From sequence record NZ_OX291475.1: 64,000 nucleotides of DNA; one strand, 5' to 3'. Shown here one piece after another: positions 9,532-30,508 of this stretch. Source of the DNA: a plasmid. The position numbers were made by a program, and so were the translations under genes. Position 1 is the stretch's first letter; each line of letters begins with the position of its first letter. Below the pieces are notes generated by a model. The model was not told where the DNA came from, did no database searches, and was given only the letters and a program-made list of their open reading frames with translations.

Positions 9532-10308
9532 TCATGTTCCTTTCAGCATGGCAATGGCGTCAAGTTCCGGCATCGAGAACTGCACCCGATGCCGCGCCGC
9601 CACATCCAGCGCAAACACCTTCGTATAGACCTCCGTGGAGCTGATCGACTTGTGTCCCATCAGCGACTGCAGCACCTTGAGTGGAATTCCGGCATACAGC
9701 ATGTGCATCGCGTAGCTGTGGCGGAAGGTGTGCGGGGTGATAGGCACCGAGAACGTCACACCATCCTGCGCTGCCGCGTCCACGGCCTCGGCCAGCCAGC
9801 TGCGCACCGTTCTGTCAGTGATTGTCCACAGGCGTACTTTCTCCATGCGACCGGTTTTGGGGTCCCGGCGTTCCAGCGGAATTTTCAGCGTGGCCACCAT
9901 GGTCTGCAGCTGTGCAACGTATAACGGATCAGACAGCGGCACCAGGCGGTGTGCCGAGCTGCCGGCCGGGAGCCGGCCTGCGGTTCGCGCGGTTTTCTCT
10001 GCCCGCTGCTTGAGCGTGGCCAACTGCGCGAACGGGTAGGGCGATGCCAGCGAAAAATCCCCCCTTGTCAGCGCCAGCGCTTCGTTAATCCGGGCGCCGG
10101 TATTCCATAGCGTAGCCAGCAACATCTTGCGGTGCAGATCCGGCACATAGTGGAACAGGGCGCTCACCTCCGGAGCCAGCAGGTATTTCGGCAGTTCGTC
10201 CTGTACCAGTGCCATCTGGCGCAGCGCCAGCGCAGCCGGGTAGTCGATGGACACCGGCAGCTGAGCTGCAGTTCCTGGCTGCTGCCCCAGGGTAACGAGC
10301 CCAGCCAT
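9532..10308 (-). CDS. Tyrosine site-specific recombinase (XerC/D-FimB-like, short form)
   Basis: C-terminal catalytic motifs HTFRHSYAMHML ... LMGHKSISSTEVYTKV (R-H-R-Y family). 258 aa. Confidence 0.85.
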   Translation of the reverse strand: MAGLVTLGQQPGTAAQLPVSIDYPAALALRQMALVQDELPKYLLAPEVSALFHYVPDLHRKMLLATLWNTGARINEALALTRGDFSLASPYPFAQLATLKQRAEKTARTAGRLPAGSSAHRLVPLSDPLYVAQLQTMVATLKIPLERRDPKTGRMEKVRLWTITDRTVRSWLAEAVDAAAQDGVTFSVPITPHTFRHSYAMHMLYAGIPLKVLQSLMGHKSISSTEVYTKVFALDVAARHRVQFSMPELDAIAMLKGT

Positions 10309-11126
10309 CAGGATGCCTCTCCGGCTGGAGGTATGTTCAGTGCTGACGCTATAATTTCCCGGTTTTCCTCATTACGCAAGTTACCGAAATAGCCCACTTC
10401 CAGGCGCAGGGACTGGTGTGCCGCCTCTATAAGGTCAGAGACGCTCTGCAGGGCATTCTGTAGCTGCTGCGCGGATATCGCTCTTGGCACATCATGTTCA
10501 TCCACGCCGTTACGGTGTACCAGGTCGTTTCGCCAGTCTGCGATCATGCTCAGCGGCTCAACCGGCCAGATGGGGGGGATGTGCAGCACGGCGCCGAAAT
10601 AGCGCTCAATGGTTTCAACGTTATGAAACGTCATTCGGGAAACAAAATTCTGCGCCGCAGGCCGGAACAGGGACAGATCCATGTCACGGGCAGCATGTTT
10701 TTCCGGATTTTTGATTCGTTTGGACTTCATGTAATACGCATCCCTGAAGCGTTTAAGGGGCCAGTCATGTTCTAGCAGGGCCCTGGCGCAGTACATCAGG
10801 TACGCCTCCATGACAGTCACGGCATGGACGAAAGACATCCTGTACACCAGTTCAGGCTGCTCTTTATCGAGCAGGGCATATAACTTCTTCAGCTCCTGAT
10901 TTGCGTGCAGGTAACGCTGATGAACATTGTTCAGGGAAGCCACAAACAGCCCGTGTTCATGATCCCACTGAGCCTGATCGGCAAGCGCCTCCTGCTCCCA
11001 GTAGTACAAGTTCGCGGCATGCTCCCATTCTTCAGAGTCGGGGACAACATCCGGGTAATTTTCCGCAAGCCATTCATCAAATCGTTCAGCTTCAATATCC
11101 AACATCAGGTCTTTCATGCTTCCCAT
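10308..11126 (-). CDS. Hypothetical protein with HEPN-like RNxxxH motif, first gene of recombinase operon
   Basis: WRNDLVHRNG (R-x4-H). Start MGSMKDL at 11126. Stop overlaps the recombinase start. Confidence 0.45.
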   Translation of the reverse strand: MGSMKDLMLDIEAERFDEWLAENYPDVVPDSEEWEHAANLYYWEQEALADQAQWDHEHGLFVASLNNVHQRYLHANQELKKLYALLDKEQPELVYRMSFVHAVTVMEAYLMYCARALLEHDWPLKRFRDAYYMKSKRIKNPEKHAARDMDLSLFRPAAQNFVSRMTFHNVETIERYFGAVLHIPPIWPVEPLSMIADWRNDLVHRNGVDEHDVPRAISAQQLQNALQSVSDLIEAAHQSLRLEVGYFGNLRNEENREIIASALNIPPAGEAS

Positions 11127-11223
11127 AACACCTGTACCTCTCTGTGTGGTTTTATAAATGAGAAATCCCGACGCTGGCGACGGCGCAGGCATCTCGGGGT
11201 GAACGCCGGCACCACTAAACCGC

Positions 11224-11421
11224 TCATGCGTTATTCCTCTCGGCCAGTCGTTGCTCGTTCCGCGACTTTCGCTCTTTGCGCCAGCATTGCCACAGCGTTT
11301 TCTGCGGAGACCAGCGGTATTTGTCGAGGCGGGAAGAGGGTATGCCGGTGATCTGCGGCCACAGGCCGGCGCTGTCTTTGACGATCTTCACGCCCTCAGT
11401 GGCAATAAACCAGTCACCCAT
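11224..11421 (-). CDS. Small hypothetical protein
   Basis: 65-aa ORF. Confidence 0.3.
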   Translation of the reverse strand: MGDWFIATEGVKIVKDSAGLWPQITGIPSSRLDKYRWSPQKTLWQCWRKERKSRNEQRLAERNNA

Positions 11422-11460
11422 GTGTGTTCCTTATTATTAAGTGCAAAATCACGCCCACCG

Positions 11461-11820
11461 TCAGGGTTGTTCAGCCGCAGCGCTGGCGATCGCATCCACT
11501 GCTTGTTTAACCGAAAAGGACAATCCATCCTTATCTTTCGGTGAAAAATGTACCCAGTAGCACAGATACGTACCGTAGTTCTGGTCGGTATGACGAGTTT
11601 CATAATTTACGCTGAATGCGTAAACCCCCCGGTTGCCCAGGCGATGGTCTGTGATTTCGCAGTAACGCAGATAAAGGTCGCGCAATTCATCAAACAACCC
11701 TCCCTCTTTCAGCGGACCCACTGCTTTGACTGCTTCACGCTGATCCATGAAATAGTCCACGGCGGCTTTTTTGGATTTAAATTCCTTCTGCCCAATCTTC
11801 ACAGGTTTTGAACGTCCCAT
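11461..11820 (-). CDS. Hypothetical protein
   Basis: 119-aa ORF with coding-like composition (MGRSKPVKIGQKEFKSKKAAVDYF..). Confidence 0.45.
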   Translation of the reverse strand: MGRSKPVKIGQKEFKSKKAAVDYFMDQREAVKAVGPLKEGGLFDELRDLYLRYCEITDHRLGNRGVYAFSVNYETRHTDQNYGTYLCYWVHFSPKDKDGLSFSVKQAVDAIASAAAEQP

Positions 11821-12502
11821 CCTGAACCCCTTTTGTTAACAGTGAAATAATCACACCCCGTAATCACCCCATCATCACGCCAGTGATGATGATCGCCCTC
11901 GCAGTTACCCGCCAAAAACATAACCAATATGATAATAAGCAGGAATATAATCACTCAAGTAAATTACAGGATACCCGTCCCGGCATGATCCGATTTTTCT
12001 TCATATAACAACTTTCCGGAAGTCTACCACGCACAGGAAATAAGCAAAGCGGCGTTTTTCGGTGCCGCGCACCGGGTCACAGGGCAGGGCGACAACACAA
12101 CATATAGATGAAAAAGCAGCTGACGATGTGGCACATATTGTGTTTTTCTGCCACTACACGCCGGGCCGGGTGAAGAAGATCCGGGACCACCAGAAATCGG
12201 ATCTGCGTATGAAGAGAATGGAACTACTGCCTCTATGGCAATAAACAACATTTATTATTGCCTTAGTAGCACTGTTGTCATAAATGCAATAATTGAAATA
12301 ATCTATTGCATCATGAGTAACTTCTGAAGCTGTTTGCCGCTCGCTCTCATCCTTAACCTGATTAATGCCGGTCGGGTTCAGATCAAATATTTATTAACCG
12401 GTGATGGAAATAAAATGAAGCCGGAACGGGATCGCCCTACTATGAATAAAATTATACGGCGCCTCCGGGCATTCATCAGCGACTGAATAAAGGTATCAAG
12501 GA

Positions 12503-15124
12503 ATGTATCCCGTATTTGAGAATGGATCCTGCTGGGTCAAGGTGGATTTTCATCTTCATACCCGTGCAGATAAAGAATTTCGCTATGTCGGGGAACCCGA
12601 CAGCTATATTCGTGACTACGTCAGTGCCCTGAAAGCGGCTGATGTGGGAGTAGGCGTGATCACCAATCATAATAAATTCGATCCCGGAGAGTTTAAGGCA
12701 TTACGCAAAGCCGCGCGCCGTGAAGGCACTGAGCTGCTTCCCGGCGTGGAACTCTCTGTCAATGATGGTCAGGCCGGCGTGCACACGCTTGTGGTGTTTG
12801 CCGATGACTGGTTCATCAACCCGCAGCAGACGAATCATATTGAAAGTTTCCTGACGGCCACGTTTGCGGGCGTTGATAATTTTGAGAACGAAAATGCCCG
12901 TTCAATAGAAAATATCACTCAGACCATCCAGCGCCTTGACCGGTATGAACGGGATTACTTCATTGTGTTTGCCCACGTTGAAGCCCCTAACGGGTTATGG
13001 CGCGGGTTCAGCCCTGGCCGGATCGGGGAGCTTTTTGATAATGAGCTTGTCCGCCGGCGCGTGATGGGGTTTCAGAAGGTGATGACCCACGACCTGCGGG
13101 TTAAAATTCACGGCGTTCTTGGTAGGCGCTATCCTGCAGAAGTCCAGGGATGCGATGCCAAAACGCTGGATGACATCGGTGCCAGAAAAGTCGCCAGCTA
13201 TCTGAAGCTGGGTGATTACAGTTTTGACGCTGTCCGATTTGCGCTGCAGGATTTCCCGCACCGCGTCAGCGGGGAAAAACCGGCCCTTATCCACAGCCAT
13301 ATCCGTCAGATAGCATTCGAGGGAGCCGGTTCGCTCGGCGGAACCGTGGTGAAATTATCTCCGGAGCTGAACACCCTGATTGGGATCCGCGGCAGCGGAA
13401 AATCCTCCATACTTGAAGGGATCCGCTATGCCCTGGACATTCCGTTTGGCGAGAAGGCATCTGACCGCGACTACAAAGAAAATCTGATCAGTAATTTACT
13501 CAAAAGCGGGGGGAAAATTACCGTCGACGCCGTGTGCCGTCTCGGGCGGGCATATCAGATAACCCGAATTTTCGGCCAGGAACCGCAGGTCATTTTTGAC
13601 GGCCAGGCCAGGCACGGGGTCGCGCTCCGGGAAACGGTTCTGCACAAGCCAGTGTATTTTGGCCAGAAAGATCTGTCCAATACCGGCGCAGGGTTTGAAC
13701 ACGATCTGATTGAAAAGCTGGTCGGTGAGCGACTGGTTCCCGTGCGAGAAAAAATCCGGCAGCAGAATACAGTCGTGCTCGACAGGTTACGCCTGCTTCG
13801 TCGCCTGAAAAAATCGGGAGAAGCACTCTCAGAATGGCAGGCAAAAAAGGCGGATGCGCAGTTCCGCCTGCGCTTTTATGCCCAGCATGGCATGGAAGAA
13901 AAACTGGAGCGGCAGACCACCTTCGGACGGGACGAGCGCTATCTCAGCAATACCTCTGCCCAGGCAACCCAAGCGCTGGACAGTCTGCAGGACGGTATCA
14001 GGGAGACACTCGACGAGTTGAAGCAGGAGCAGAAACATGAATCAGCGCATAACCAGGCCGAGATCGATGACTATTGTGAGGGATATGATCGCTTCACGAC
14101 CCATCTCAACTCCCTGAACACCATCGTCGACGGCGCCCGCCAGCTCCTCACAGAACTCGATACTAAGCAGCAGGCCTTCCAGCAGAAAAAGCAGGCGCTG
14201 ACGGAGGAATTTGCCGAAATAGAGCGAGGCCTTGCAGAAGAGTTGCGGCGGGCCGGGGTGGAAAAAGCCGATCCGGCCGACTTTCTGAAACTAAAGGCTG
14301 GGCTGGAAACTGCGGAAGAGAAAATAGATGAGTTAACCCGGGCTGAAACCAGTCAAGCGTTACAGGAGAAGAGCCTCACAGAAGCGCTGAGCCGGTTGGC
14401 TGAACTCTGGGGGGAAGAGTATCACGAAATTGAAGCCGTGCTGGCCACCATCAACCAGGCAGATTCGCCCTTGAAGATCGTGCCGGCCTTTGCAAGCGAC
14501 AAAAAAGCCATGCAATCTTTTCTGAAAGAAACGTTTATTGGCAGCCGGTTGCGGGAAAGTACCTACCAGACCGTAGCTGACGGCTTCAGCGATTTTGGCG
14601 AACTCTGGCTGAACAGGGATAAACTCCAGGGGATTATCAACGGCTCTGCTGAGACGTTCGGTGTGTATCTGGAACAGCAGATAGAATCGCTAATCGTCTG
14701 GCAGATCCCGAATACCTACACCATTGAATTCCGCGGAAAACCACTGGAACAACACTCGCTGGGTCAGCGCGCCTCCGCATTAATGCTGTTTGTCCTGAAT
14801 CAGCAGGATAATGATGTGGTGATCATCGATCAGCCCGAAGACGACCTGGACAATCAGACGATTTATGACGACGTGATTAAAATCATCAGGACGATGAAAC
14901 CCCGCACCCAATTTATCTTTGCCACTCACAATGCCAACATTCCGGTTCTGGGTGACGCAGAGAATGTCTGTGCCTGTGAATATTCAGACGGAAAGATCCA
15001 GGCTGCCGGTGGAGGCGTGGATGCACCTCATGTACAACAGCACATTATTTCGGTGATGGAGGGCGGGCGAGAAGCCTTTGAGCGGCGCAGGGAAGTTTAC
15101 GGCTCATGGCTCAGTAAAACCTGA
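12503..15124 (+). CDS. PHP-domain phosphoesterase fused to SMC-like ABC ATPase (Ppl-like anti-phage architecture)
   Basis: N-terminal DFHLHTRAD...ITNHN...HTLVVFADD (PHP metal-binding His/Asp). Walker A GIRGSGKSS. Long coiled-coil. C-terminal LSxGQR signature, Walker B VIIDQPEDDLD and H-loop ATHN. 873 aa. Confidence 0.8.
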   Translation: MYPVFENGSCWVKVDFHLHTRADKEFRYVGEPDSYIRDYVSALKAADVGVGVITNHNKFDPGEFKALRKAARREGTELLPGVELSVNDGQAGVHTLVVFADDWFINPQQTNHIESFLTATFAGVDNFENENARSIENITQTIQRLDRYERDYFIVFAHVEAPNGLWRGFSPGRIGELFDNELVRRRVMGFQKVMTHDLRVKIHGVLGRRYPAEVQGCDAKTLDDIGARKVASYLKLGDYSFDAVRFALQDFPHRVSGEKPALIHSHIRQIAFEGAGSLGGTVVKLSPELNTLIGIRGSGKSSILEGIRYALDIPFGEKASDRDYKENLISNLLKSGGKITVDAVCRLGRAYQITRIFGQEPQVIFDGQARHGVALRETVLHKPVYFGQKDLSNTGAGFEHDLIEKLVGERLVPVREKIRQQNTVVLDRLRLLRRLKKSGEALSEWQAKKADAQFRLRFYAQHGMEEKLERQTTFGRDERYLSNTSAQATQALDSLQDGIRETLDELKQEQKHESAHNQAEIDDYCEGYDRFTTHLNSLNTIVDGARQLLTELDTKQQAFQQKKQALTEEFAEIERGLAEELRRAGVEKADPADFLKLKAGLETAEEKIDELTRAETSQALQEKSLTEALSRLAELWGEEYHEIEAVLATINQADSPLKIVPAFASDKKAMQSFLKETFIGSRLRESTYQTVADGFSDFGELWLNRDKLQGIINGSAETFGVYLEQQIESLIVWQIPNTYTIEFRGKPLEQHSLGQRASALMLFVLNQQDNDVVIIDQPEDDLDNQTIYDDVIKIIRTMKPRTQFIFATHNANIPVLGDAENVCACEYSDGKIQAAGGGVDAPHVQQHIISVMEGGREAFERRREVYGSWLSKT

Positions 15125-15299
15125 TGCCATCAGGTTCACTGAGCATCCAGAAAAAGCCGCAAATGCGGCTTTTTCTGTTTCCGATTATTGGGGTTTTACC
15201 GAATCTCATGGTGGTATGTGTGATCCACCGTGGACGCACTCTACAGATATCATTATATTAGTCAGTAAAAATAGACAAACCGCAAGGGATGGGATTTAC

Positions 15300-15614
15300 A
15301 TGACACAGCTTGAATATAATGAGTTACTCGCCTTATACCGCGCCCGTCTGGATATTGCCTCACAAAGAGGTACCTACGCCTCGATGCTGCAAAGTATCCT
15401 TCGAGACATCAGTAATAAGGTCAAACGTGGCGAACTGACAAAAGAGCAAGGTCTCTCGCTGGCGAAAATACTGTTCAATATTTCCGTAGAACAGTACCAC
15501 ATTGATGGTGTTGAGTCTCTCAATGAGGAAATCAGAAAGGGGTCTCTTGATATTTCTTACGATGCCGCTGACGCTATGGCTGAAAAAATAGCCGCCATGA
15601 AGGCAAATAGATAA
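15300..15614 (+). CDS. Small helical hypothetical protein downstream of the PHP-ATPase
   Basis: ORF 15078..15614 trimmed to MTQLEYNELL at 15300 (the upstream part overlaps the ATPase gene). Stop overlaps the next ATG. Confidence 0.45.
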   Translation: MTQLEYNELLALYRARLDIASQRGTYASMLQSILRDISNKVKRGELTKEQGLSLAKILFNISVEQYHIDGVESLNEEIRKGSLDISYDAADAMAEKIAAMKANR

Positions 15615-16141
15615 TGGCCGATCTCACAACTATCGAATCAGCAGCATCCGCAGTCTGGTCAACACGTGATTATCTTTATACTGCAGGCGTTTTTGTGGCC
15701 GTCATTTCAGCGTGGATTGCAGGTTATAGCGCATATAAAACTGGGAGGCGTGACCTGAATTCATTAGGGGATTCGGAAATCAAGACGTTTGAAATGATTG
15801 CAAAAGCTGAAAAGGATTTTGCTGAGTTCAATGCACGTCTTACAGATAAAATTGATTTATTTGATGCTGATCCTGCGAACAAAGGTAAAGAGTATCCCCT
15901 CACTGGTGCGGAAACAGGACTGAGTGATTTCTACACACAAAGCGTGTTGAATGCCTATGAAATTGCCTGCCAACGTTACTTGGACAAAAAACTCGATGGC
16001 GAGAGATTTAAAAAAACATATCGAACGAGGCTTAATAAGATTTGTTCCTCACGAGCATATAACCCCATAATTGATGATGGGAGCCATAACTACGCAGCAT
16101 TGAAAAAAGTAAACGACATCTTTAACAATCCTGAAAAGTAA
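15614..16141 (+). CDS. Membrane-anchored hypothetical protein
   Basis: N-terminal hydrophobic helix (LYTAGVFVAVISAWIAGYSAY). 175 aa. Translationally coupled (TAATGG). Confidence 0.5.
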   Translation: MADLTTIESAASAVWSTRDYLYTAGVFVAVISAWIAGYSAYKTGRRDLNSLGDSEIKTFEMIAKAEKDFAEFNARLTDKIDLFDADPANKGKEYPLTGAETGLSDFYTQSVLNAYEIACQRYLDKKLDGERFKKTYRTRLNKICSSRAYNPIIDDGSHNYAALKKVNDIFNNPEK

Positions 16142-16147
16142 ATTTAA

Positions 16148-16186
16148 AGAGCCTGCCAAACACGCAGGCTCTTTAAAAAAAGACAT
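16148..16186. terminator. Bidirectional terminator between convergent genes
   Basis: AAAGAGCCTGCCAAACACGCAGGCTCTTTAAAAAAAG hairpin. Confidence 0.65.
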
Positions 16187-16442
16187 CAATACTTTTTTGC
16201 CACATTCCGTAAGGAGTGACAACGTCGTTAAATAGCCTTTCATGAATAAAATCGGTGATAAGTAAGAGAATATCGGACAGAACGCTAAAGAATCAACAGG
16301 AAAGGGAAAGTGTAAGGCGGTCAGTAACGCCCATTTACAGCTGTTAGCCCCATATACAGGCGTGGACGGTTGATAACCAAGAGATAAAATCGGTACAAAG
16401 TGGTCTACATGGAGTAAACCACTTCAAGAGGGGTTCCTAAGG

Positions 16443-17117
16443 CTAAAGAAAGATAAATCCCTTCGTAGTAAGCAATGGCCGGGTTCCTAAAGGTACCGTG
16501 AGGTTATATTTTCCAATATTATTTTCCTCATCGTAAGTATCGCCTAATCCTAAAATAACTTCCCTGTTACATAACTCAGGAATATCACGACAAAGACTGG
16601 CGATAATATTGGTTAAATTATAAATAGATGTATATAAATCAAATCCTCCTGAATATAATTCACCCTTATGCAGGATTTGAGGATCATTCGCGAACCCGTC
16701 TAAATTATCAAAAACAAAACTCAAGTCTTGGCAATATGTAATCAGTGAATTTTTTTCTTCTAACTTCCAGGGTTGTGATTTTCCAGACATAAAAGCACGC
16801 AAAGCCTTCGCAACTATATGGATAGGGATAATTATCATTTCATTATGACTAAGTAACATATTTTCATGATTAAAGACAACACGGATCTCATCAATATCAC
16901 CTTGGTGATGATAATAGTTTCTTAAATGCTTGAGGATTTTGAACTCAGGATAACTCATTAAGTCAGTATCAAAATCTTGCTTCAACCTGTCATTTAAAGA
17001 ATGCAAACTATTTAAAAACGTATAAAGTGTTCTACCATTTCTTTTATGGGCACAAGTCACATCCATTAGCTCGAAGCTGCTTTCAAAAAATCTGTCAATG
17101 TACTTTAAATTATCCAT
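16443..17117 (-). CDS. AT-rich hypothetical protein with HEPN-like LRNYYHH motif (Abi-like)
   Basis: 224 aa, ~33% GC. Contains ILKHLRNYYHHQGD (R-x4-H). Confidence 0.5.
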   Translation of the reverse strand: MDNLKYIDRFFESSFELMDVTCAHKRNGRTLYTFLNSLHSLNDRLKQDFDTDLMSYPEFKILKHLRNYYHHQGDIDEIRVVFNHENMLLSHNEMIIIPIHIVAKALRAFMSGKSQPWKLEEKNSLITYCQDLSFVFDNLDGFANDPQILHKGELYSGGFDLYTSIYNLTNIIASLCRDIPELCNREVILGLGDTYDEENNIGKYNLTVPLGTRPLLTTKGFIFL

Positions 17118-17464: not shown

Positions 17465-18202
17465 TCATTGTAAGGGGCGGTGTTTATTCTTATGATATTC
17501 CTGCACGGTGGAATTTATCGCTTCCACATATCGCGAGATTTCATCCACAGCGAAATTCAGGAAATTATTCTTGAGCAGGACTGTATTGAAGCAAGTGACC
17601 GAAATTGCCTCGCTTGCCTTGCTAATAGCGCGCAACTGTCTTTTCTCGCTGTCTTTTTTTGCACGTGTCATTTTCAGCAGCTGATGATACTCGTGAGCAA
17701 CACCGTCGGCATGTGCCATTATATTCCTGATGATAGTCAGGTGATCAACATCGGCAATATCCTTCTTTCCGTAGATGGTGGTCAGCATGTCGTGGGTTTT
17801 TTCAATCATTCCCCCCTTGAGTATTTCCGTATGCCCAGAAAGGCGAATCATCAATTCCAGGCAATTACTCATACGTTGCTCGAACAGGCCAAATATTGTC
17901 AAAAATGCAGAGCGCCGTGTCAGTTGGGTAATTAAATTAACGTACTGTAATTTGACTTCCTCGACATCGTTACCTACACACGACCCGCAGGAGTAATAGG
18001 TATACCATACCTGTCTGTAAGATCCATCCTCATTCTCCAGGTAGTCCTCAATTATATCTTCCGTGATAAAATCAGGCTCATCCACTGCTTTAACTTCGCG
18101 AATGATATTAGCTTCAGCCTGTTGAGCAAGCATCTTCATGACAGAAATTGACGAAGACGCTTCCCATAAAGGAACACTAAACAGACACTCTAGTTTTGCC
18201 AC
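17465..18202 (-). CDS. Hypothetical protein with HEPN-like IIRNIMAHADG motif
   Basis: 245 aa. RNIMAH matches Rx4H. Confidence 0.5.
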   Translation of the reverse strand: MAKLECLFSVPLWEASSSISVMKMLAQQAEANIIREVKAVDEPDFITEDIIEDYLENEDGSYRQVWYTYYSCGSCVGNDVEEVKLQYVNLITQLTRRSAFLTIFGLFEQRMSNCLELMIRLSGHTEILKGGMIEKTHDMLTTIYGKKDIADVDHLTIIRNIMAHADGVAHEYHQLLKMTRAKKDSEKRQLRAISKASEAISVTCFNTVLLKNNFLNFAVDEISRYVEAINSTVQEYHKNKHRPLQ

Positions 18203-18325: not shown

Positions 18326-19396
18326 TCAGGCCTTTTTAACAGCAGTGGCTATTGGCTGACCACCTTGTTGCGTACTCTGCTCCGGCTCAAATGTAACCCT
18401 GTCATGCACCGCATAAGCGTTCATGCCCCCCACAAAGGCACCGGCAAAGGCAGTAAAGGTCTTTTTGTCCTTTTCGCTTTGAATCATCACTATCTGGCTT
18501 GCCACGTTAATATTAACAACAACGCCAGTATGACGGGTTTCCAGCAGTGTATTTCCCAGCCACTGTTCACCACTAATAATGTCAAGTTCGGAAAGGCCGG
18601 CTGGCAGTCTCTTGTTTTTCCACAACGAGTGCGGACTGCATAGCTCGTTTACATTTTGGGTGTTTTCAATAATGCTCAACAATTTTAGATTAGACGGGTT
18701 GATCCATCGAATCACCTCGATACAGCGATGATATTCACGGGCAACTTTATTAATGGCCTGTTCGACAGAGTAGGTTTTATCAGAACGCCATAATGGCTCG
18801 TGATGGGATATTCTGTTACGTAACGTATTTATATCCCGGAGATCTGCACCAATTCTGTTTATTGATAATGCTTTGCCATTTTTATTGGCATGGGGAAAAA
18901 CGCGTGAAGTCAAGTCCGGCCATAAAGAAAGATAGTTGCAATAATTGGCATGAGTACGATCATATTTCTTGTCGACCAATGACACCCAAAATCCGAGTGT
19001 TAACTTTGAGATGAGATTTTCTGTTGTGTGCGGCTTTCCATCTTTATTAAGTTGACCTTTTGCCGCCGCGATAGCTTTAAACGATGTATTGTTGTTTGCC
19101 TGCGTCATTACAGTTACAAACCACTTATCATCGATATTCCCTTTCTTCTGCGCCCAGGTTGGTTGAGGATGGAGCCGTTTTATTTCATCTTCTTCGAAAG
19201 CCTGTTTGGCCCCGCAAATGGCATTCCTTAATGAGACCTCGATCACCTGCAGTGCGGGAAGGAATGCGCCGGCGAGCTGTTTATTCCATAGATAAATGCC
19301 CAGGCACTCTTCTGGTGTGGCGCCGTTGAAAACGGAAGATTGGTAGGTTGCAAATCGGTGCTGTGATATAGAGCTTAAAATAGCCGCAATCGTCAT
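18326..19396 (-). CDS. Abi_2 (AbiD/AbiF)-like abortive-infection protein with C-terminal extension
   Basis: 356 aa. TLRNRISHHEPLW resembles the conserved Abi_2/HEPN motif. Has an extra ~100-aa C-terminal domain. Confidence 0.55.
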   Translation of the reverse strand: MTIAAILSSISQHRFATYQSSVFNGATPEECLGIYLWNKQLAGAFLPALQVIEVSLRNAICGAKQAFEEDEIKRLHPQPTWAQKKGNIDDKWFVTVMTQANNNTSFKAIAAAKGQLNKDGKPHTTENLISKLTLGFWVSLVDKKYDRTHANYCNYLSLWPDLTSRVFPHANKNGKALSINRIGADLRDINTLRNRISHHEPLWRSDKTYSVEQAINKVAREYHRCIEVIRWINPSNLKLLSIIENTQNVNELCSPHSLWKNKRLPAGLSELDIISGEQWLGNTLLETRHTGVVVNINVASQIVMIQSEKDKKTFTAFAGAFVGGMNAYAVHDRVTFEPEQSTQQGGQPIATAVKKA

Positions 19397-19780
19397 AATA
19401 TCTCCTTGATGTCCGATGAGTATATCAAAGCGCTTGACGTGAGCAAAAATTTGAAGGATGATGTGCCCCAGAGACAGGATCTCTAACTGTGTGAGCGACT
19501 ATGCCGGTGATAAATCACCCGCTAGGTTGCGAAATTTTCAAAGAAGGCTTCCTCCGGGGAGCCTTTTTTGATTGTGTCGATCAATGCACTAGCCAGCATT
19601 CTCCACTCACCTTCACCATATTCATCCGTATTTCAATCAAGCCCGTCACTCAGCCTACAAGTTCCGAAGAATTAGTTTGCCTAGACACGCCTGTGAATAA
19701 CGCTTTGTTCGAAATCCCGCACCACCACTGAAGCTATAGCTATACTTTGGCCATGTCGACACAAAAGGATCACCTGCCTA

Positions 19781-20466
19781 TGTGTGGCCGTTTTGCCCAG
19801 TTCCATAGCCGAGAGGAATTTATCACCGCCCTGCGATCCGAAACGCCAATGATCACCACCGGTGACTGGCATGCACGGTATAACGTTGCCCCTGGCACGC
19901 CGGTACCGCTGTTCCATCATCATGATGATCAGCTGCAGCTAACACCGGTTGACTGGGGCTATGCGCCGATATGGTGGCGAGAGCAGGGAAAACCGCCACT
20001 CATCAACGCCCGCGTCGAAACCGCCGCAAGCAGCCGGATGTTCACGCCGCTCTGGAAACATGGCCGTGCGTTGGTACCGGCATCAGGTTGGTACGAATGG
20101 AAAAAGTCCCCGGACAATCCGAAACTGAAGCAACCGTATTTCATCTATCCCGCCGATCGCAGCCCGCTGTTCTTCGCCGCGTTGTGCTCCACTGATCCGG
20201 AAGAAGCTGGCAGCTTCGTCATCATCACGGCCGCCAGTCATGACGGTCTGGCGGATATTCATGATCGGCGCCCACTGGCGCTGCCGGCAGCCGCCGCACG
20301 CGACTGGCTCGATAGCCGGTTGACCCCGCCGCCAGGCGACATGTTGGCCGACGTTTATAGCCTGCAGGCGGATGATTTCAACTGGCAACCGGTCTCGCCG
20401 GCGGTAGGTGCCGTTCGCAATGACAATCCCTCACTCATCCTTGCCATCGATACACCAACGGTCTGA
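19781..20466 (+). CDS. SOS-response-associated peptidase (SRAP/YedK-like abasic-site processing protein)
   Basis: Begins MCGRF (catalytic Cys2). Conserved SRAP layout. ORF 19747..20466 trimmed to the ATG at 19781. Confidence 0.8.
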
Positions 20467-25980: not shown

Positions 25981-27307
25981 TCTATGGTCACTCCCGTTTT
26001 TGCAACACCGATTTTGACGACAAGTTGGCTTGCTTGAATCTATCCGGCGTCTGAATGGGATTTTATTCCCGCGCCTTGATGAGTTCCGCGCCTGATGAAC
26101 CTCCAGAAAATATACGGCTTCAATGAGCCTTTCCGTTTTACAGGTTCCTCAACAGGCCGGTGGGCCGTTAGTATCATCAATATCAGTATTCGCAAAACCA
26201 GATCAGTAATTCTTTAAACCGGTGTATTTCTGCCGTTATGCTACATAAGTTTGCTGTCGTGCCGTTAGGGCCCAGGCTATTCTGGCCAGCTTGTTTGCCA
26301 GAGCACAAGTGACGACAAAGTTGCTTTTCCGGCACAGTAAATCCCTGACCCAATCGGCCAATTTGCCAGACTGGTGTTCCAGTTTTTGTATGAATACCCT
26401 GGCACATTGAACCAACAAAGTTCGGATCTTTTTATTACCTCGCTTACTAATTCCCAGCAATGTCGTCCTACCTCCCGTGCTGTACTGCCGAGGTACAAGC
26501 CCTGTTGCCGCCGCAAAGTCACGGCTGCTGGCGTACTGCTTCCCGTCGCCAATCTCAGTTGAAATAGTACTCGCTGTCAGTGTTCCGACGCAGGGAATGC
26601 TCAGCAAGCGCTGTCCAACCTCATCTTCGTCCAACTTTCGTTTCAACTGGGATTCCAAATCTTTAATCTGCTCAACAAGATAGTGATAATGCTGTTGTAA
26701 TTTCAGCAATAACTGGCTGAGGTAAAGAGGCAAACTATTATCCTCAAGAATGGTACTCAGTCGGCTAATAACGGCAGCTCCTCGGGGAACGCTAATGCCA
26801 AATTCCAGCAGAAAAGCATGCATTTGATTGGTTGTTTTTACCTTATCCTGAACCAGGGATTCACGGACACGATGCAGAGCCCGCATTGCCTGCTGAGATT
26901 CCGTTCTGGGCTGCACAAAACGCATAGACGGACGCGATGCAGCTTCACAAATAGCTTCGGCGTCGACAAAGTCGTTTTTATTGCTTTTAACGAACGGGCG
27001 GACAAATTGTGGTGATATCAGCTTTGGGGAATGCCCCAACTCTTCCAACTTGCGTGCCATAAAGTGAGAACCGCCACAGGCTTCCATTGCGATGGTTGTA
27101 GCGGGGCATGTCGCCAAAAATTCGATCAACTTTGGCCGGGTAAATTTTTTACGGTAAACAGCCTTCCCGCGACGATCCTGGCAATGAATATGGAAAGAGT
27201 TTTTACCCAGATCGATACCAATGAGCGCAATGTTTTCCATGATAGTTCTCCGAATGAAAGCCTGTCCTCAGCATAGTACCGGGAAGGAGGGAGTGACCAT
27301 CTCATTA
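25981..27307 (-). mobile_element. IS5075/IS4321-like IS110-family element, copy A (1327 bp)
   Basis: Inserted at position 22|23 of a Tn21-type IR, the canonical target of IS4321/IS5075. Termini TCTATGGTCACTCCC ... GGGAGTGACCATCTCATTA. Confidence 0.8.
26236..27240 (-). CDS. IS5075-like IS110-family transposase
   Basis: 334 aa, MENIALIGIDLGKNSFHIHC... Identical copy at 33554-34558. Confidence 0.85.
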   Translation of the reverse strand: MENIALIGIDLGKNSFHIHCQDRRGKAVYRKKFTRPKLIEFLATCPATTIAMEACGGSHFMARKLEELGHSPKLISPQFVRPFVKSNKNDFVDAEAICEAASRPSMRFVQPRTESQQAMRALHRVRESLVQDKVKTTNQMHAFLLEFGISVPRGAAVISRLSTILEDNSLPLYLSQLLLKLQQHYHYLVEQIKDLESQLKRKLDEDEVGQRLLSIPCVGTLTASTISTEIGDGKQYASSRDFAAATGLVPRQYSTGGRTTLLGISKRGNKKIRTLLVQCARVFIQKLEHQSGKLADWVRDLLCRKSNFVVTCALANKLARIAWALTARQQTYVA

Positions 27308-27318
27308 AATAAAGCACG

Positions 27319-27876
27319 CTAAGCGTGCGTGGAGGCTGGCACCCAGCGGTACAGCGTCGGAATGGACACGCCGAGGTTCTTGGCCACGTCCTTGGGCGGC
27401 ACCCCGCTGGCCAGCAGCTTCTTGGCCGACTCGATCTTGCTGTCGGTCATCTTCGGCTTGCGGCCGCCTTTGCGGCCGAGCTGCTTGGCGACTTCCAGCC
27501 CGGCGCGGGTGCGCTCGACGGTCAGCTCGCGCTCCATTTCGGCAAGGCTCGCCATGACGTGGAAGAAGAACCGCCCGGATGGTGTGCCGGTGTCGATGGA
27601 GTCGGTGAGGCTCCTGAACTGGACACCGTGCTTGTGCAGATCGCCGACCAGATCGACCAGTTGCTTGACCGACCGGCCCAGCCGGTCGAGCTTCCAGACG
27701 ACCAAAGTATCGCCTTCGCGCAGCATTTCGAGCGTCTTGGCCAAGCCAGGCCGGTCTGCCCGCGTGCCACTCACCTTGTCCTCGAAGACCTTTTTACATC
27801 CGGCCTTGCTCAAGGCTTCGCGTTGCAGCTCCAGGTTCTGATCCTGCGTCGAGACGCGCGCATAGCCAATCAACAT
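27319..27876 (-). CDS. tnpR: Serine recombinase/resolvase TnpR of nested transposon
   Basis: MLIGYARVSTQDQNLELQ (catalytic Ser in the RVST motif) with a C-terminal HTH. Stop codon lies inside the IR (CTAAG). Confidence 0.85.
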   Translation of the reverse strand: MLIGYARVSTQDQNLELQREALSKAGCKKVFEDKVSGTRADRPGLAKTLEMLREGDTLVVWKLDRLGRSVKQLVDLVGDLHKHGVQFRSLTDSIDTGTPSGRFFFHVMASLAEMERELTVERTRAGLEVAKQLGRKGGRKPKMTDSKIESAKKLLASGVPPKDVAKNLGVSIPTLYRWVPASTHA

Positions 27877-28241
27877 GGCTTGTCTCGCGCCCGGTCGATG
27901 CGTTCCTGCATCGCCTGCATCACTTCTTCGTGGGTGTACGATCTGGCGTTGGCGTCGGTGGCTTGCCGCAGGGCTTCCTCAACCTCGCGCGTCATCCGCT
28001 CGTAATCCTCCGGCCACAGCGCTTGCTCCATGCGCAGCGACGCCTGACCCAGCAGGTGCAGCAGGCTGAACAGCCGCATGTCGTTGGTGGCGACGATGCG
28101 CTCCCGAATCTGCTCCTGAATAGCTTCGCTAGCCCGATGCGCTTGTGGTGTGGCAGTCCCCTCGTAGTCAGCGGGGAATTCCGCTTCCTCGGCAATCCTT
28201 GCCCAGGCGCTGGCCAGCGCCTCGATGGTTGACGTGCTCAT
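27870..28241 (-). CDS. Hypothetical protein (possible TnpM-like/res-overlapping ORF)
   Basis: ORF 27870..28430 trimmed to MSTSTIEALAS at 28241. GC-rich context, so it could be spurious and instead overlap the res site. Confidence 0.3.
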   Translation of the reverse strand: MSTSTIEALASAWARIAEEAEFPADYEGTATPQAHRASEAIQEQIRERIVATNDMRLFSLLHLLGQASLRMEQALWPEDYERMTREVEEALRQATDANARSYTHEEVMQAMQERIDRARDKPC

Positions 28242-28750
28242 TTCCGCCGCTCCTGTGCTCTTTGGCGAATCAACCGGCCAAGGGGCCTCGACGCGAAAAC
28301 CAGCAGCATCACGCCTATCGGATACCAGGTCGAGAAGACCACCAAGGCATCGAAGGCTGGCCGTCCGGTGTTGGTAGGCAGTACGGCGGTCACAGCCATC
28401 AACCCGCCGACCGTCCAGATGATGCGCCACACGTAGGGCATCACGCGGGGCACGTAGCCGTCATCGAAAGCGGTCTGGTAGTAGCGGCGCAGGCCGCGCT
28501 CGGCAAGCGCCTGGCGCTGCCGCTCCGACAGCGCATCCGTCCGGCCATACCAGCGCCGGAATGGTGGACAGCGCAGCAGCAAAGGGGTGAAGAGGATCAT
28601 CACCGCCACGATCGCGACACCCCACGCCATGACGGCGCCGGCATCGGGCCGCTTGGCGTTCTCGATCACGGGCGCGAAGACGCCCGGAGCACCGATCATC
28701 CAGAACAGCGCAATGTGCTGATGGAAGGAGAGCTTCATTTGCTCATCCAC
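28238..28750 (-). CDS. Integral membrane hypothetical protein
   Basis: 170 aa with ~4 hydrophobic segments. Confidence 0.45.
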   Translation of the reverse strand: MDEQMKLSFHQHIALFWMIGAPGVFAPVIENAKRPDAGAVMAWGVAIVAVMILFTPLLLRCPPFRRWYGRTDALSERQRQALAERGLRRYYQTAFDDGYVPRVMPYVWRIIWTVGGLMAVTAVLPTNTGRPAFDALVVFSTWYPIGVMLLVFASRPLGRLIRQRAQERRK

Positions 28751-29061
28751 TTGCGCAGCAGGCGCTTTTTCAGGGAGGCGCGTTCTTGCGGGTTGCGTCC
28801 CTTGTGATTGGCGATGCGATCCGCCGTGGCGGCCTGGCGCTTGACGGGCCAGTAGGAGCGGCCATCCTTGCCCATCGACCAGACGCTGCTGGCCTGGTTT
28901 TCCAGCAGGGGCAGATGGGCGCTCAGGGCTTCGGGCGACGCGCTGGTCAGCGCCGTGCGCTCACGGGTGCGCCAGCGCTGATGCCAGAGCTTCTTGTCCT
29001 CGCGCTCGCTGCCGCAGGTCGTGTGCCCGACGATGGGTGTTTTGCGGCGGCTGCGGCTCAT
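28735..29061 (-). CDS. Basic small hypothetical protein
   Basis: 108-aa ORF, Arg/Lys rich. Confidence 0.3.
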   Translation of the reverse strand: MSRSRRKTPIVGHTTCGSEREDKKLWHQRWRTRERTALTSASPEALSAHLPLLENQASSVWSMGKDGRSYWPVKRQAATADRIANHKGRNPQERASLKKRLLRKWMSK

Positions 29062-29315
29062 AACGTAGTGGTCTCCAAGAACATTCAGGACTGATCCCAG
29101 GCGTCGATGGTCAAGACCTGATCGGCAGGACAGGCGGCTACGCGGTCGGGAACTGGATGGTGTTCAGTCTCATGCCGACCCCATTCGATTGATCGCGTCG
29201 CTTGCGGCACGCTGCGACGCAAGGAGGTTTGCGACCTGGTTTAGCAGCCGTGTCCGCTGCATGTCTGTTACCTATCTCCCCGACCGCTCATTGGACCAAC
29301 TCCAGAGATTGGGCT

Positions 29316-29672
29316 CTATCGCTCAGCCAATACGAAACCGGCATTGGCTGATGCCACAACCGAGACTAACACAAATGGCTCGGTACCTGTATTTCGCGCC
29401 CCGTGCACTTGGCCCGGTCTTGCCACGGCTATCTCACCTTCCCTGAGGGCACGAACAATCCCATTGCCCTGAAAGTAATCAGCCATTCCCGACAAAACAG
29501 TCCACGTGTCTTGGCCGTGAGGATGAATGTGAGCCGCAATTTCCTGCCCGGGATGGACATGCCAAACCACGATAATTGAGTCTCGGGTTTCAAGCACAAC
29601 GGAACGAATAGGCTCGCCTTCGGACGGCTGAACATACTCGGCTACAGAAAATATTCTCGATTCAACAGTCAT
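29316..29672 (-). CDS. Cupin-domain protein
   Basis: HVHPGQEIAAHIHPHGQDTW...GEIAVARPGQVHGARN (two cupin His motifs). Start MTVESRIF at 29672 with an AAAGAGGGA RBS. Confidence 0.65.
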   Translation of the reverse strand: MTVESRIFSVAEYVQPSEGEPIRSVVLETRDSIIVVWHVHPGQEIAAHIHPHGQDTWTVLSGMADYFQGNGIVRALREGEIAVARPGQVHGARNTGTEPFVLVSVVASANAGFVLAER

Positions 29673-30063
29673 CGGAGATCCCTCTTTCACAGTTGTCGTT
29701 ACGGTCTTCATCGTCGGCATCCTGACGCACGGCGGGCAATTGCTGGAGCAACGCCGGCAGCCATTCCTGTACCGTCTCCCACACCACATCGAGGTTGATG
29801 TCGAAATAGCCGTGAGCCATGCGATTACGCATATTGCGCATGCTGCGCCACGGCACGTCGGCATGCGCCTGGGTGAACTCGACGTAGCCATCCATCACCT
29901 TTGTGGCCGCCTCGCCGATGACGATCAGGCTCATGATGACGGCCTGCTGGGTGCGCTTGTCGGCCAAGAAGTCGTCCTTGGCCATCCCTTCCACGAAGCT
30001 GCGCGCATCGGTTGCGGCCTGCTGAATGTGGTCGAGGTAATCGGGCAGGCGGTTCTCGCTCAT
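29662..30063 (-). CDS. hepT: HepT-like HEPN ribonuclease toxin (DUF86)
   Basis: RNRMAHGY (Rx4HxY motif). 133 aa. Overlaps the mntA stop. Confidence 0.8.
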   Translation of the reverse strand: MSENRLPDYLDHIQQAATDARSFVEGMAKDDFLADKRTQQAVIMSLIVIGEAATKVMDGYVEFTQAHADVPWRSMRNMRNRMAHGYFDINLDVVWETVQEWLPALLQQLPAVRQDADDEDRNDNCERGISDDC

Positions 30064-30356
30064 ATCGGTTGCGCCTCCGCGAGCACCTTGGCCCGGAACT
30101 TCGGCGGCAGGTCGCCGGGAGTCAGCAGATCGACGTCAACGCCGAGCAGCGATTTCAGTTCTTCTTCCAAATCGCCCAAGTCCAACAACGTGGCACCGGG
30201 CAGCGCATCGACCAACAGGTCGAGGTCGCTGCCATCCCGGTCGGTGCCATGCAGCACCGAGCCGAAGACGCGCGGGTTCGCGGCGCGAAAGCGGCCTACC
30301 GCTTCACGCACTGCGCTTCGCTTCATGTCAAGCACAACAGACGGTCGCATGCGCAT
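30060..30356 (-). CDS. mntA: MntA-like minimal nucleotidyltransferase antitoxin
   Basis: GSVLHGTDRDGSDLDLLVD (GSx10DxD NTase motif). 98 aa. Confidence 0.8.
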   Translation of the reverse strand: MRMRPSVVLDMKRSAVREAVGRFRAANPRVFGSVLHGTDRDGSDLDLLVDALPGATLLDLGDLEEELKSLLGVDVDLLTPGDLPPKFRAKVLAEAQPI

Positions 30357-30508
30357 CCTTTCTTATCGAAACTCGTTGAGATGATATGCAATCAAGAATA
30401 GAATTTCAAGAACTATTTTCGAGAATCGCAATGCCTTGATTCCCGTGCCGCGCCGGTTGCCTTGGCGGGCTTGTCACAAACCTACGTTTTCAAGAAGAAG
30501 GAAACCGC

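Follow-up and report, generated by a model that had tools for sequence, protein, structure and literature searches.

The subject of this study is a gene for an 873-amino acid protein of the TrlF family, together with the two small genes that follow it on the same strand, in a 64,000-nucleotide stretch of plasmid DNA (sequence record NZ_OX291475.1). That whole stretch, numbered from its first letter, will be called the window. It is 100% identical to AP028558.1, the 93.9-kb plasmid pQC08_2 of Serratia marcescens QC08, which is typed conjugative (MOBP/MPF_I). An initial annotation of the locus, made from the letters of the window, joined the three genes into one system built around a protein resembling the anti-phage protein Ppl. 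The evidence set out here favors a different account, that the locus very probably consists of two unrelated, self-contained cassettes that stand side by side: a solo TrlF, predicted to be a nuclease-ATPase, and an independent pair of small genes. The first cassette (approximately 12197-15197) would comprise its own upstream region, the TrlF gene, and its own terminator. The second (approximately 15231-16177) would be a mobile, coupled pair, whose products are one small, soluble protein and one helical protein anchored in the membrane. The elements of the two cassettes are as follows.

12197-12502, plus strand: conserved, non-coding sequence that precedes the TrlF gene, forming the left end of the shared unit (four-plasmid alignment).
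12503-15124, plus strand: gene of the TrlF-family protein, 873 amino acids (from the list of open reading frames).
15148-15178, plus strand: intrinsic terminator of the TrlF gene, CAGAAAAAGCCGC-AAAU-GCGGCUUUUUCUG and then UUU, marking the right end of the shared unit.
15231-15259, plus strand: promoter-like site ahead of the pair, TGGACG-17-TATATT, a weak match to the consensus (9/12).
15300-15614, plus strand: first small gene, encoding a soluble protein of 104 amino acids (ATG at 15300, stop at 15612-15614).
15614-16141, plus strand: second small gene, 175 amino acids, its start overlapping the preceding stop by 1 nt.
16143-16177, no strand assigned: 14-bp hairpin at the end of the pair (terminator scan).

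The boundaries of the first cassette emerge from comparison with other plasmids. A megablast search found the TrlF gene on 147 plasmids and in 125 complete E. coli genomes, at 87-96% nucleotide identity, and in the E. coli genomes it lies on plasmids in every case. The plasmid hosts are Escherichia, Serratia, Citrobacter, Klebsiella, Salmonella, Shigella, Cronobacter and Edwardsiella. Among the blastn matches listed, similarity to other plasmids begins on the left at about 12197-12323 (at 12197 in the closest relative, S. marcescens p14BL03_1) and ends on the right at 15175-15197. At the right end lies the terminator, a perfect 13-bp hairpin with a U-tract, 24 nt past the TrlF stop. Its predicted folding energy of -23.9 kcal/mol (z = -4.2) was equalled by 0 of 200 shuffled sequences. 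The terminator is kept in all four of the plasmids aligned, and a few bases beyond it their sequences are unrelated. What follows a solo TrlF gene varies from one plasmid to the next: remnants of vapBC, a gene of the korC region, or a hypothetical gene on the opposite strand.

The small genes do not share this distribution. They accompany the TrlF gene on only one of the 147 plasmids, the source plasmid itself, and are absent from the other 146 or so. Viewed from the other side, the 175-amino acid gene occurs on 31 plasmids, and only on the source plasmid does it stand beside TrlF. No homologue of either small protein was found in 80 TrlF loci (all tblastn E-values exceeded 1), and no PHP-ATPase was found in the approximately ten other contexts of the pair that were examined. 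In those contexts the pair stands alone, in integrative and conjugative elements (ICEs), in IncX1 plasmids, as transposon cargo, and in chromosomes.

These distributions make it very unlikely that the three genes constitute one operon and one system, in which two proteins would serve a Ppl-like enzyme, one as a helical adaptor and the other as an anchor or effector at the membrane. That proposal draws on real features of the locus. The three genes are adjacent on one strand, with 175 nt between TrlF and the pair; translational coupling links the two small genes; there is a hairpin beyond the third gene; and TrlG, the canonical partner of TrlF considered below, is missing at the window locus, a replacement being conceivable in principle. 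Nevertheless, the three-gene system fails by the criterion that the initial annotation itself had set: the large gene and the small ones are not conserved together, and therefore no new system can be claimed from the locus. As regards the single transcription unit of the initial annotation, the strong, conserved terminator at 15148-15178 and the promoter-like site at 15231-15259 argue against it, and as read from the sequence they suggest that the TrlF cassette would be transcribed separately. The pair was also considered as a functional replacement for TrlG and rejected as such, since no other solo TrlF plasmid has it and it is widespread without TrlF.

The protein encoded by the first cassette is a PHP phosphoesterase fused to an SMC/Rad50-like ABC ATPase with a coiled-coil arm, an architecture that the initial annotation had recognized from short motifs and that is upheld here by motifs, conserved residues, a structure model, and fold searches, all in agreement. 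Its parts are laid out in this way.

Residues 1 to about 260: PHP phosphoesterase domain.
Residues 266-397: N-lobe of the ABC ATPase head, with Walker A at 297-302 and Q388.
Residues 398-652: coiled-coil arm of about 255 amino acids, seen as helices in the AlphaFold2 model.
Residues 653-873: C-lobe of the ABC ATPase head, with the signature at 752-756, Walker B at 772-779, and H809.

The PHP motifs DFHLHTRAD (15-23), ITNHN (53-57) and VVFADD (97-102) and the ATPase motifs GSGKSS (297-302), LGQR (753-756) and IIDQPEDDLD (774-783) are present in the translation. When 39 full-length relatives were aligned, the invariant or nearly invariant columns were H17, H19, E83, H94, H158 and D218 in the PHP domain and G297/K300, Q388, S752/G754/Q755/R756, D776-E779 and H809 in the ABC ATPase. 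The window protein keeps every PHP metal-binding residue and every ABC motif, including the Q-loop and the H-loop. In the AlphaFold2 model (mean predicted local distance difference test score, or pLDDT, of 88.5), the N-terminal domain is alpha/beta, the ATPase head is split, and the arm is helical. By Foldseek, the ATPase part resembles the heads of MukB, Smc, JetC, Rad50, RecF and RecN (E from 1e-12 to 1e-6), and the N-terminal domain resembles the PHP-fold enzymes PfuEndoQ (5zb8, E 1.3e-6) and BAD_1165 (3o0f, E 2e-6). A profile of the family, compared with the PDB, matches SMC5/6, SMC3, Rad50 and AriA over positions 270-816 and the PHP protein TM0559 (2anu) over positions 7-89. Such matches came from the family profile and the structure model alone; phmmer with a single TrlF sequence found none among PDB sequences. 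Pfam recognizes the ATPase ends of the protein (AAA_21 and SMC_N) and reports no PHP domain at E < 0.1. Because Pfam is silent, the PHP domain is identified here by the conserved residues, by the NCBIfam CehA/McbA match, and by the fold search.

The gene belongs to a family that already has a name. The NCBIfam model NF045780 ("TrlF family AAA-like ATPase") matches the protein from end to end (residues 7-867; profile positions 1-944 of 944). The score is 539.3 bits, where the cut-off is 350 (E 2.8e-161), and close relatives already carry the same label in RefSeq. The family is large: an exhaustive HMMER search of representatives of clusters at 50% identity gave 7245 relatives with E-values of up to 0.001, of which 591 had 1e-30 or less, most of them colinear and about 860-900 amino acids long.

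Resemblance to Ppl is real as regards architecture and homology, but it does not extend to identity with Ppl. The latter, a single-gene anti-phage protein of E. coli, is similar in length to TrlF and likewise joins a PHP domain to an ABC/SMC-like ATPase, into which a coiled coil is inserted, both it and the window TrlF being single-gene units, and the PADLOC model for Ppl (PDLC02208) matches the window protein with an E-value of 1.1e-37. However, the NCBIfam model specific to Ppl (NF042955, Ppl_antiphage) gives 163.9 bits, E 4.5e-48, against a cut-off of 1000, and the ppl gene annotated on a Pantoea plasmid encodes a protein 28% identical over residues 8-311 only. Since the window protein lies above the TrlF cut-off and far below that for Ppl, it shares the architecture of Ppl as a remote relative and is not itself Ppl proper. 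The likeness of its clade to Ppl is one of sequence and predicted structure.

Other known proteins resemble the window TrlF over part of its length. PDC-M49A, a defense protein of candidate status in PADLOC, matches the N-terminal PHP region (E 2.2e-15), and a canonical TrlF matches it over residues 10-305; the match is partial, and the profile is shorter (674-681 positions). SbcCD/Mre11-Rad50, OLD/Gabija GajA, PARIS AriA, Lamassu LmuB, and Wadjet JetC couple a coiled-coil ABC ATPase to a nuclease, as TrlF is predicted to do, and Rad50, SMC, JetC and AriA are among the profile or fold matches. The similarity to this group is limited to the ATPase motifs. The predicted nuclease of TrlF is a fused PHP domain, whereas the other systems use Mre11, Toprim or Cap4, and the arm of the window protein is much shorter than SMC arms.

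The name TrlF goes back to Photorhabdus laumondii and its temperature-restriction locus, trlR-trlF-trlG (PMC7554251), described in the only paper that a full-text literature search for "TrlF" returned. In Photorhabdus, spontaneous temperature-tolerant mutants map to trlG, whose product combines AlbA_2/Schlafen and HATPase_c_4 domains, and the paper assigns TrlF no function (PMC7554251).

To describe the usual setting of the gene, I surveyed 80 loci of the family, one genome per species. In 59 of them a gene of about 385 codons lies directly downstream on the same strand (for example L014:6001-9752 and L016:2971-6719 of the survey), in 44 instances overlapping the TrlF stop by 4 nt. The three members that were scanned all contain SLFN_AlbA_2 and HATPase_c_4 domains, as does TrlG. 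Among the 21 loci without TrlG, nine run short of downstream sequence and two have a truncated TrlF. Considering only informative loci, those with a full-length TrlF and sufficient downstream sequence, the pairing holds in 59 out of 69 (86%), and about ten other full-length family loci also lack TrlG. The canonical unit is therefore TrlF-TrlG, with or without TrlR. Upstream of TrlF, some loci have a small HTH_3 gene at a distance of 14-23 nt, and 12 share a neighbor cluster whose one scanned member is a large DNA methylase. Plasmid relatives of the window protein at 47-57% identity (in Yersinia ruckeri, Pseudomonas, and E. coli NC_019045) also carry an overlapping TrlG, annotated in those records as "RNA-binding domain-containing protein". 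The Schlafen part of TrlG resembles the N-terminal region of the PADLOC model for pAgo (E 1.5e-16). Found across bacterial phyla, TrlF-TrlG looks like an unrecognized two-gene defense candidate. Homologues of TrlF occur on 335 plasmids, 226 of which are typed conjugative.

Against this background the window locus is atypical. Its TrlF agrees with that of P. laumondii in the order of the parts (PHP domain, ABC ATPase, coiled coil), but it is borne by a plasmid instead of a chromosome, it has its own terminator, and it lacks both TrlG downstream and the helix-turn-helix protein TrlR upstream. No TrlG-like sequence was found anywhere in the 64-kb window, and no open reading frame of at least 40 codons for a TrlR-like helix-turn-helix protein lies on the plus strand at 11820-12503. 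The enterobacterial plasmid clade has lost TrlG and keeps an intact TrlF under purifying selection: all four of the solo orthologues compared have 873 codons, and comparison of the window gene with three plasmid orthologues gave dN/dS (the ratio of nonsynonymous to synonymous substitution rates) of 0.11-0.15, about 0.12, at dS of 0.12-0.40. The solo gene is maintained by selection, to judge from the intact codons and the low ratio.

It is extremely improbable, then, that solo TrlF is an inactive remnant of TrlF-TrlG that does not work without its partner. One might suspect as much from the 86% of informative loci that keep TrlG and from the Photorhabdus operon, whose only known phenotype maps to TrlG (PMC7554251). 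A remnant would hardly be expected to have all 873 codons intact in every orthologue compared, at a dN/dS of 0.11-0.15 and a dS of up to 0.40, nor to retain all catalytic residues. Furthermore, the solo form has spread over plasmids of Escherichia, Salmonella, Klebsiella, Citrobacter, Serratia and Edwardsiella, and it has company in the ten or so other full-length loci without TrlG. As a separate matter, a chromosomal copy in Klebsiella sp. I138 (locus L013) is 91% identical to the window TrlF, with only residues 1-552 matched; this copy is apparently truncated or interrupted.

What solo TrlF does can be approached through its nearest characterized relative. According to the accounts of Xu et al. 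(Mol Cell 2026) available through PMC13434339 and PMC12904381, Ppl is a 3'-5' exonuclease of single-stranded DNA that is inhibited by nucleoside triphosphates (NTPs) and triggered by NTP depletion together with 3'-OH overhangs. By analogy, the most likely role of solo TrlF is that of a DNA nuclease regulated by nucleotides and working by itself. Its ATPase heads and coiled coil would dimerize and sense DNA ends or structures as well as nucleotide levels, whereupon the PHP domain would break down the DNA of invading phages, or possibly foreign plasmid DNA, from 3' ends. An anti-phage function of the window TrlF is on these grounds plausible.

The main rival to an immune role is that solo TrlF serves the plasmid itself, in the processing or repair of DNA ends after the manner of SbcCD/Mre11-Rad50 (at conjugative entry or multimer resolution, for example), or in a Wadjet-like exclusion of competing plasmids. 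This would suit the closest structural matches of the ATPase (MukB, Smc, JetC, Rad50, RecF and RecN), the fact that on many conjugative plasmids the gene lies near partition genes and the resD resolvase, and the conjugative typing of 226 out of the 335 plasmids with a TrlF homologue. I consider it unlikely all the same, inasmuch as the gene is accessory, patchy in distribution and flanked by variable cargo, its nearest characterized relative is an anti-phage protein, and its neighbors are Abi, PifA, restriction and toxin-antitoxin genes and not those of replication or repair.

Several considerations weigh against the account of two independent cassettes, the first of them a stand-alone immune nuclease. 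Terminators can be leaky, and some transcription might read through into the small genes; in this one plasmid the two cassettes are in fact adjacent and on the same strand. The temperature restriction that is the sole phenotype of the Photorhabdus operon is attributed to trlG, no trlF mutants having been recovered (PMC7554251). Finally, transfer of the Ppl mechanism is an extrapolation, because the window protein falls below the Ppl threshold and its identity of about 28% is confined to the N-terminal third.

The second cassette is a rare, independently mobile pair of genes, separate from TrlF. Both genes are real, with the overlap (1 base) that the initial annotation noted, and are conserved elsewhere as a pair: at every locus of the 175-amino acid family that was examined, a small gene precedes, its stop overlapping the start of its neighbor. 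An alternative reading of the first small gene with 178 codons, beginning at TTG 15078, was rejected, since it spans the conserved TrlF terminator and homologues begin at the ATG. The settings of the pair are diverse. They include an ICE backbone, where the pair lies between genes of the DUF2857 region and acaB; E. coli islands, beside an ABC-three-component system; the chromosome of Aeromonas, beside glyQS; the chromosome of Pectobacterium; Yersinia; plasmids (IncX1 among the carriers), beside resolvase, Abi_2, DpnII-like and NACHT genes; a site between two integrase genes; and the cargo of a Tn7-like transposon.

In a set of 5.8 billion proteins, relatives of the 175-amino acid protein form just 26 clusters. 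All of these come from Enterobacterales or Aeromonas, and no Pfam domain was found in any of the 26. Two motifs, RDLNSLGDSE and VLNAYEIACQRYLDxKLD, are invariant in the family. The prediction that the protein is anchored in the membrane is supported by a hydrophobic helix in its N-terminal part (about residues 21-43). The AlphaFold2 model is all-helical (pLDDT 77) and has no specific match in the PDB. The Pfam family DUF4760 has a comparable layout, a hydrophobic N-terminal helix and then a helical domain, but the 175-amino acid protein scores 15.3 bits, below the gathering threshold of 25. Seven of 20 members of its family give a weak, colinear match (best E 0.0023), and no literature on the function of DUF4760 was found. 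Neither small protein has a significant match in PADLOC, PHROGs or NCBIfam.

Sequence search with the 104-amino acid protein returned only identical sequences, and its relatives were for this reason of a different source: they were taken from loci of the 175-amino acid family (L002, L004, L009, and L093-L099). The small partner ranges from 66 to 114 amino acids and ends in all ten sequences with the motif ISFDxADxLAxxIAALR, ISYDAADAMAEKIAAMK in the window. The conserved C-terminal stretch is about 25 amino acids long (15540-15611 in the window), and the N-terminal part ranges from absent to about 80 amino acids. This pattern suggests that the C-terminal helix docks onto the membrane protein.

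In the initial annotation, the proposed transcription unit was said to end at a strong bidirectional terminator. The 14-bp hairpin at 16143-16177 is there, but it scores as a terminator on the minus strand, for which it has a good T-tract; on the plus strand it is followed only by TTT and then by a run of A.

The second cassette is plausibly a membrane-acting defense or addiction module of its own. A fuller proposal, covering both cassettes, is that solo TrlF is a stand-alone, Ppl-like immune nuclease that works without TrlG and that the pair is a new, autonomous, membrane-associated defense or addiction module, in which the conserved C-terminal helix of the small protein could hold the membrane protein in check. 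I offer this combination tentatively, as possible rather than probable. If solo TrlF is such a nuclease, then TrlF would be sufficient for both sensing and killing, and TrlF-TrlG would be a widespread, unrecognized two-gene defense system. The pair would be a rare module of the mobile elements of Enterobacterales.

The TrlF gene belongs to a named family, and what is new here is modest: that TrlF is usually coupled to TrlG, which a widespread clade of enterobacterial plasmids has lost, and that the adjacent pair is a rare but well-conserved autonomous cassette on ICEs, plasmids and transposons. Its candidacy as a new defense or addiction module is speculative. The family nonetheless merits attention. 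It comprises hundreds of clusters at 50% identity, shares its design with the anti-phage nuclease Ppl, and exists in two forms, one paired with a Schlafen-like protein and the other solo, on conjugative plasmids that are common in enterobacteria, among them F-type plasmids from clinical E. coli. The solo form bears on whether these plasmids confer phage resistance like that of Ppl, and on what TrlG contributes.

Within the conserved region upstream of TrlF, two further elements may be noted.

12275-12302, plus strand: sigma-70-like site, TTGTCA-16-AATAAT with TG (promoter scan).
12416-12487, plus strand: upstream open reading frame of 23 codons, with a conserved ATG at 12416, in frame with 12443.

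The 14-codon upstream open reading frame of the initial annotation is present at 12443-12487, but its start codon is not conserved, ATG 12443 being ATA in the three other plasmids aligned. Within the longer 23-codon frame, most substitutions between plasmids alter the peptide, and a functional leader peptide upstream of TrlF is doubtful. A search of 11500-16600 with Rfam gave nothing above the gathering scores, the two weak matches being terminator hairpins. Upstream of the promoter-like site of TrlF, at 12236-12262, is an inverted repeat (GGCAATAA...TTATTGCC), whose arms are conserved across the four plasmids and whose center is variable. The repeat may serve as an operator, or it may terminate the divergent unit that lies upstream.

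The genes that surround the two cassettes in the window are these.

9532-10308, minus strand: resD-type tyrosine recombinase (resolvase).
10308-11192, minus strand: HEPN-like protein, 294 amino acids, with a weak RiboL-PSP-HEPN match, overlapping the start of resD.
11461-11820, minus strand: DUF3223 (HamC-like) protein, 119 amino acids.
16443-17117, minus strand: open reading frame of 224 codons, between the small-gene pair and the Abi_2 gene.
17465-18202, minus strand: open reading frame of 245 codons, between the small-gene pair and the Abi_2 gene.
18326-19396, minus strand: Abi_2 protein, 356 amino acids (PADLOC PD-T4-5, E 1e-31; AbiD weak).
19747-20466, plus strand: SOS-response-associated peptidase of the SRAP/YedK family (E 2.5e-53).

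The region beside resD is rich in defense and addiction genes. The Abi_2 protein, 2 kb from the TrlF and small-gene locus, is likely a single-gene abortive-infection protein. On other plasmids, solo TrlF orthologues adjoin pifA, an Abi protein and a restriction enzyme, or ccdAB/vapBC, and the surroundings of TrlF across plasmids fit a variable hotspot of defense and addiction genes. Stretches of 9532-11820 recur upstream of the TrlF gene on other plasmids.

The proteins of 224 and 245 amino acids have no match in Pfam or PADLOC, and their reading frames lie within a stretch of low G+C content (36% at 16001-17000). At the other extreme, 27000-33000 has a G+C content of 58-66%, as compared to about 45-55% elsewhere in the window, which suggests that this block is of different origin. 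Further along the annotated plasmid record are frmRAB and a Tn3-type transposase.

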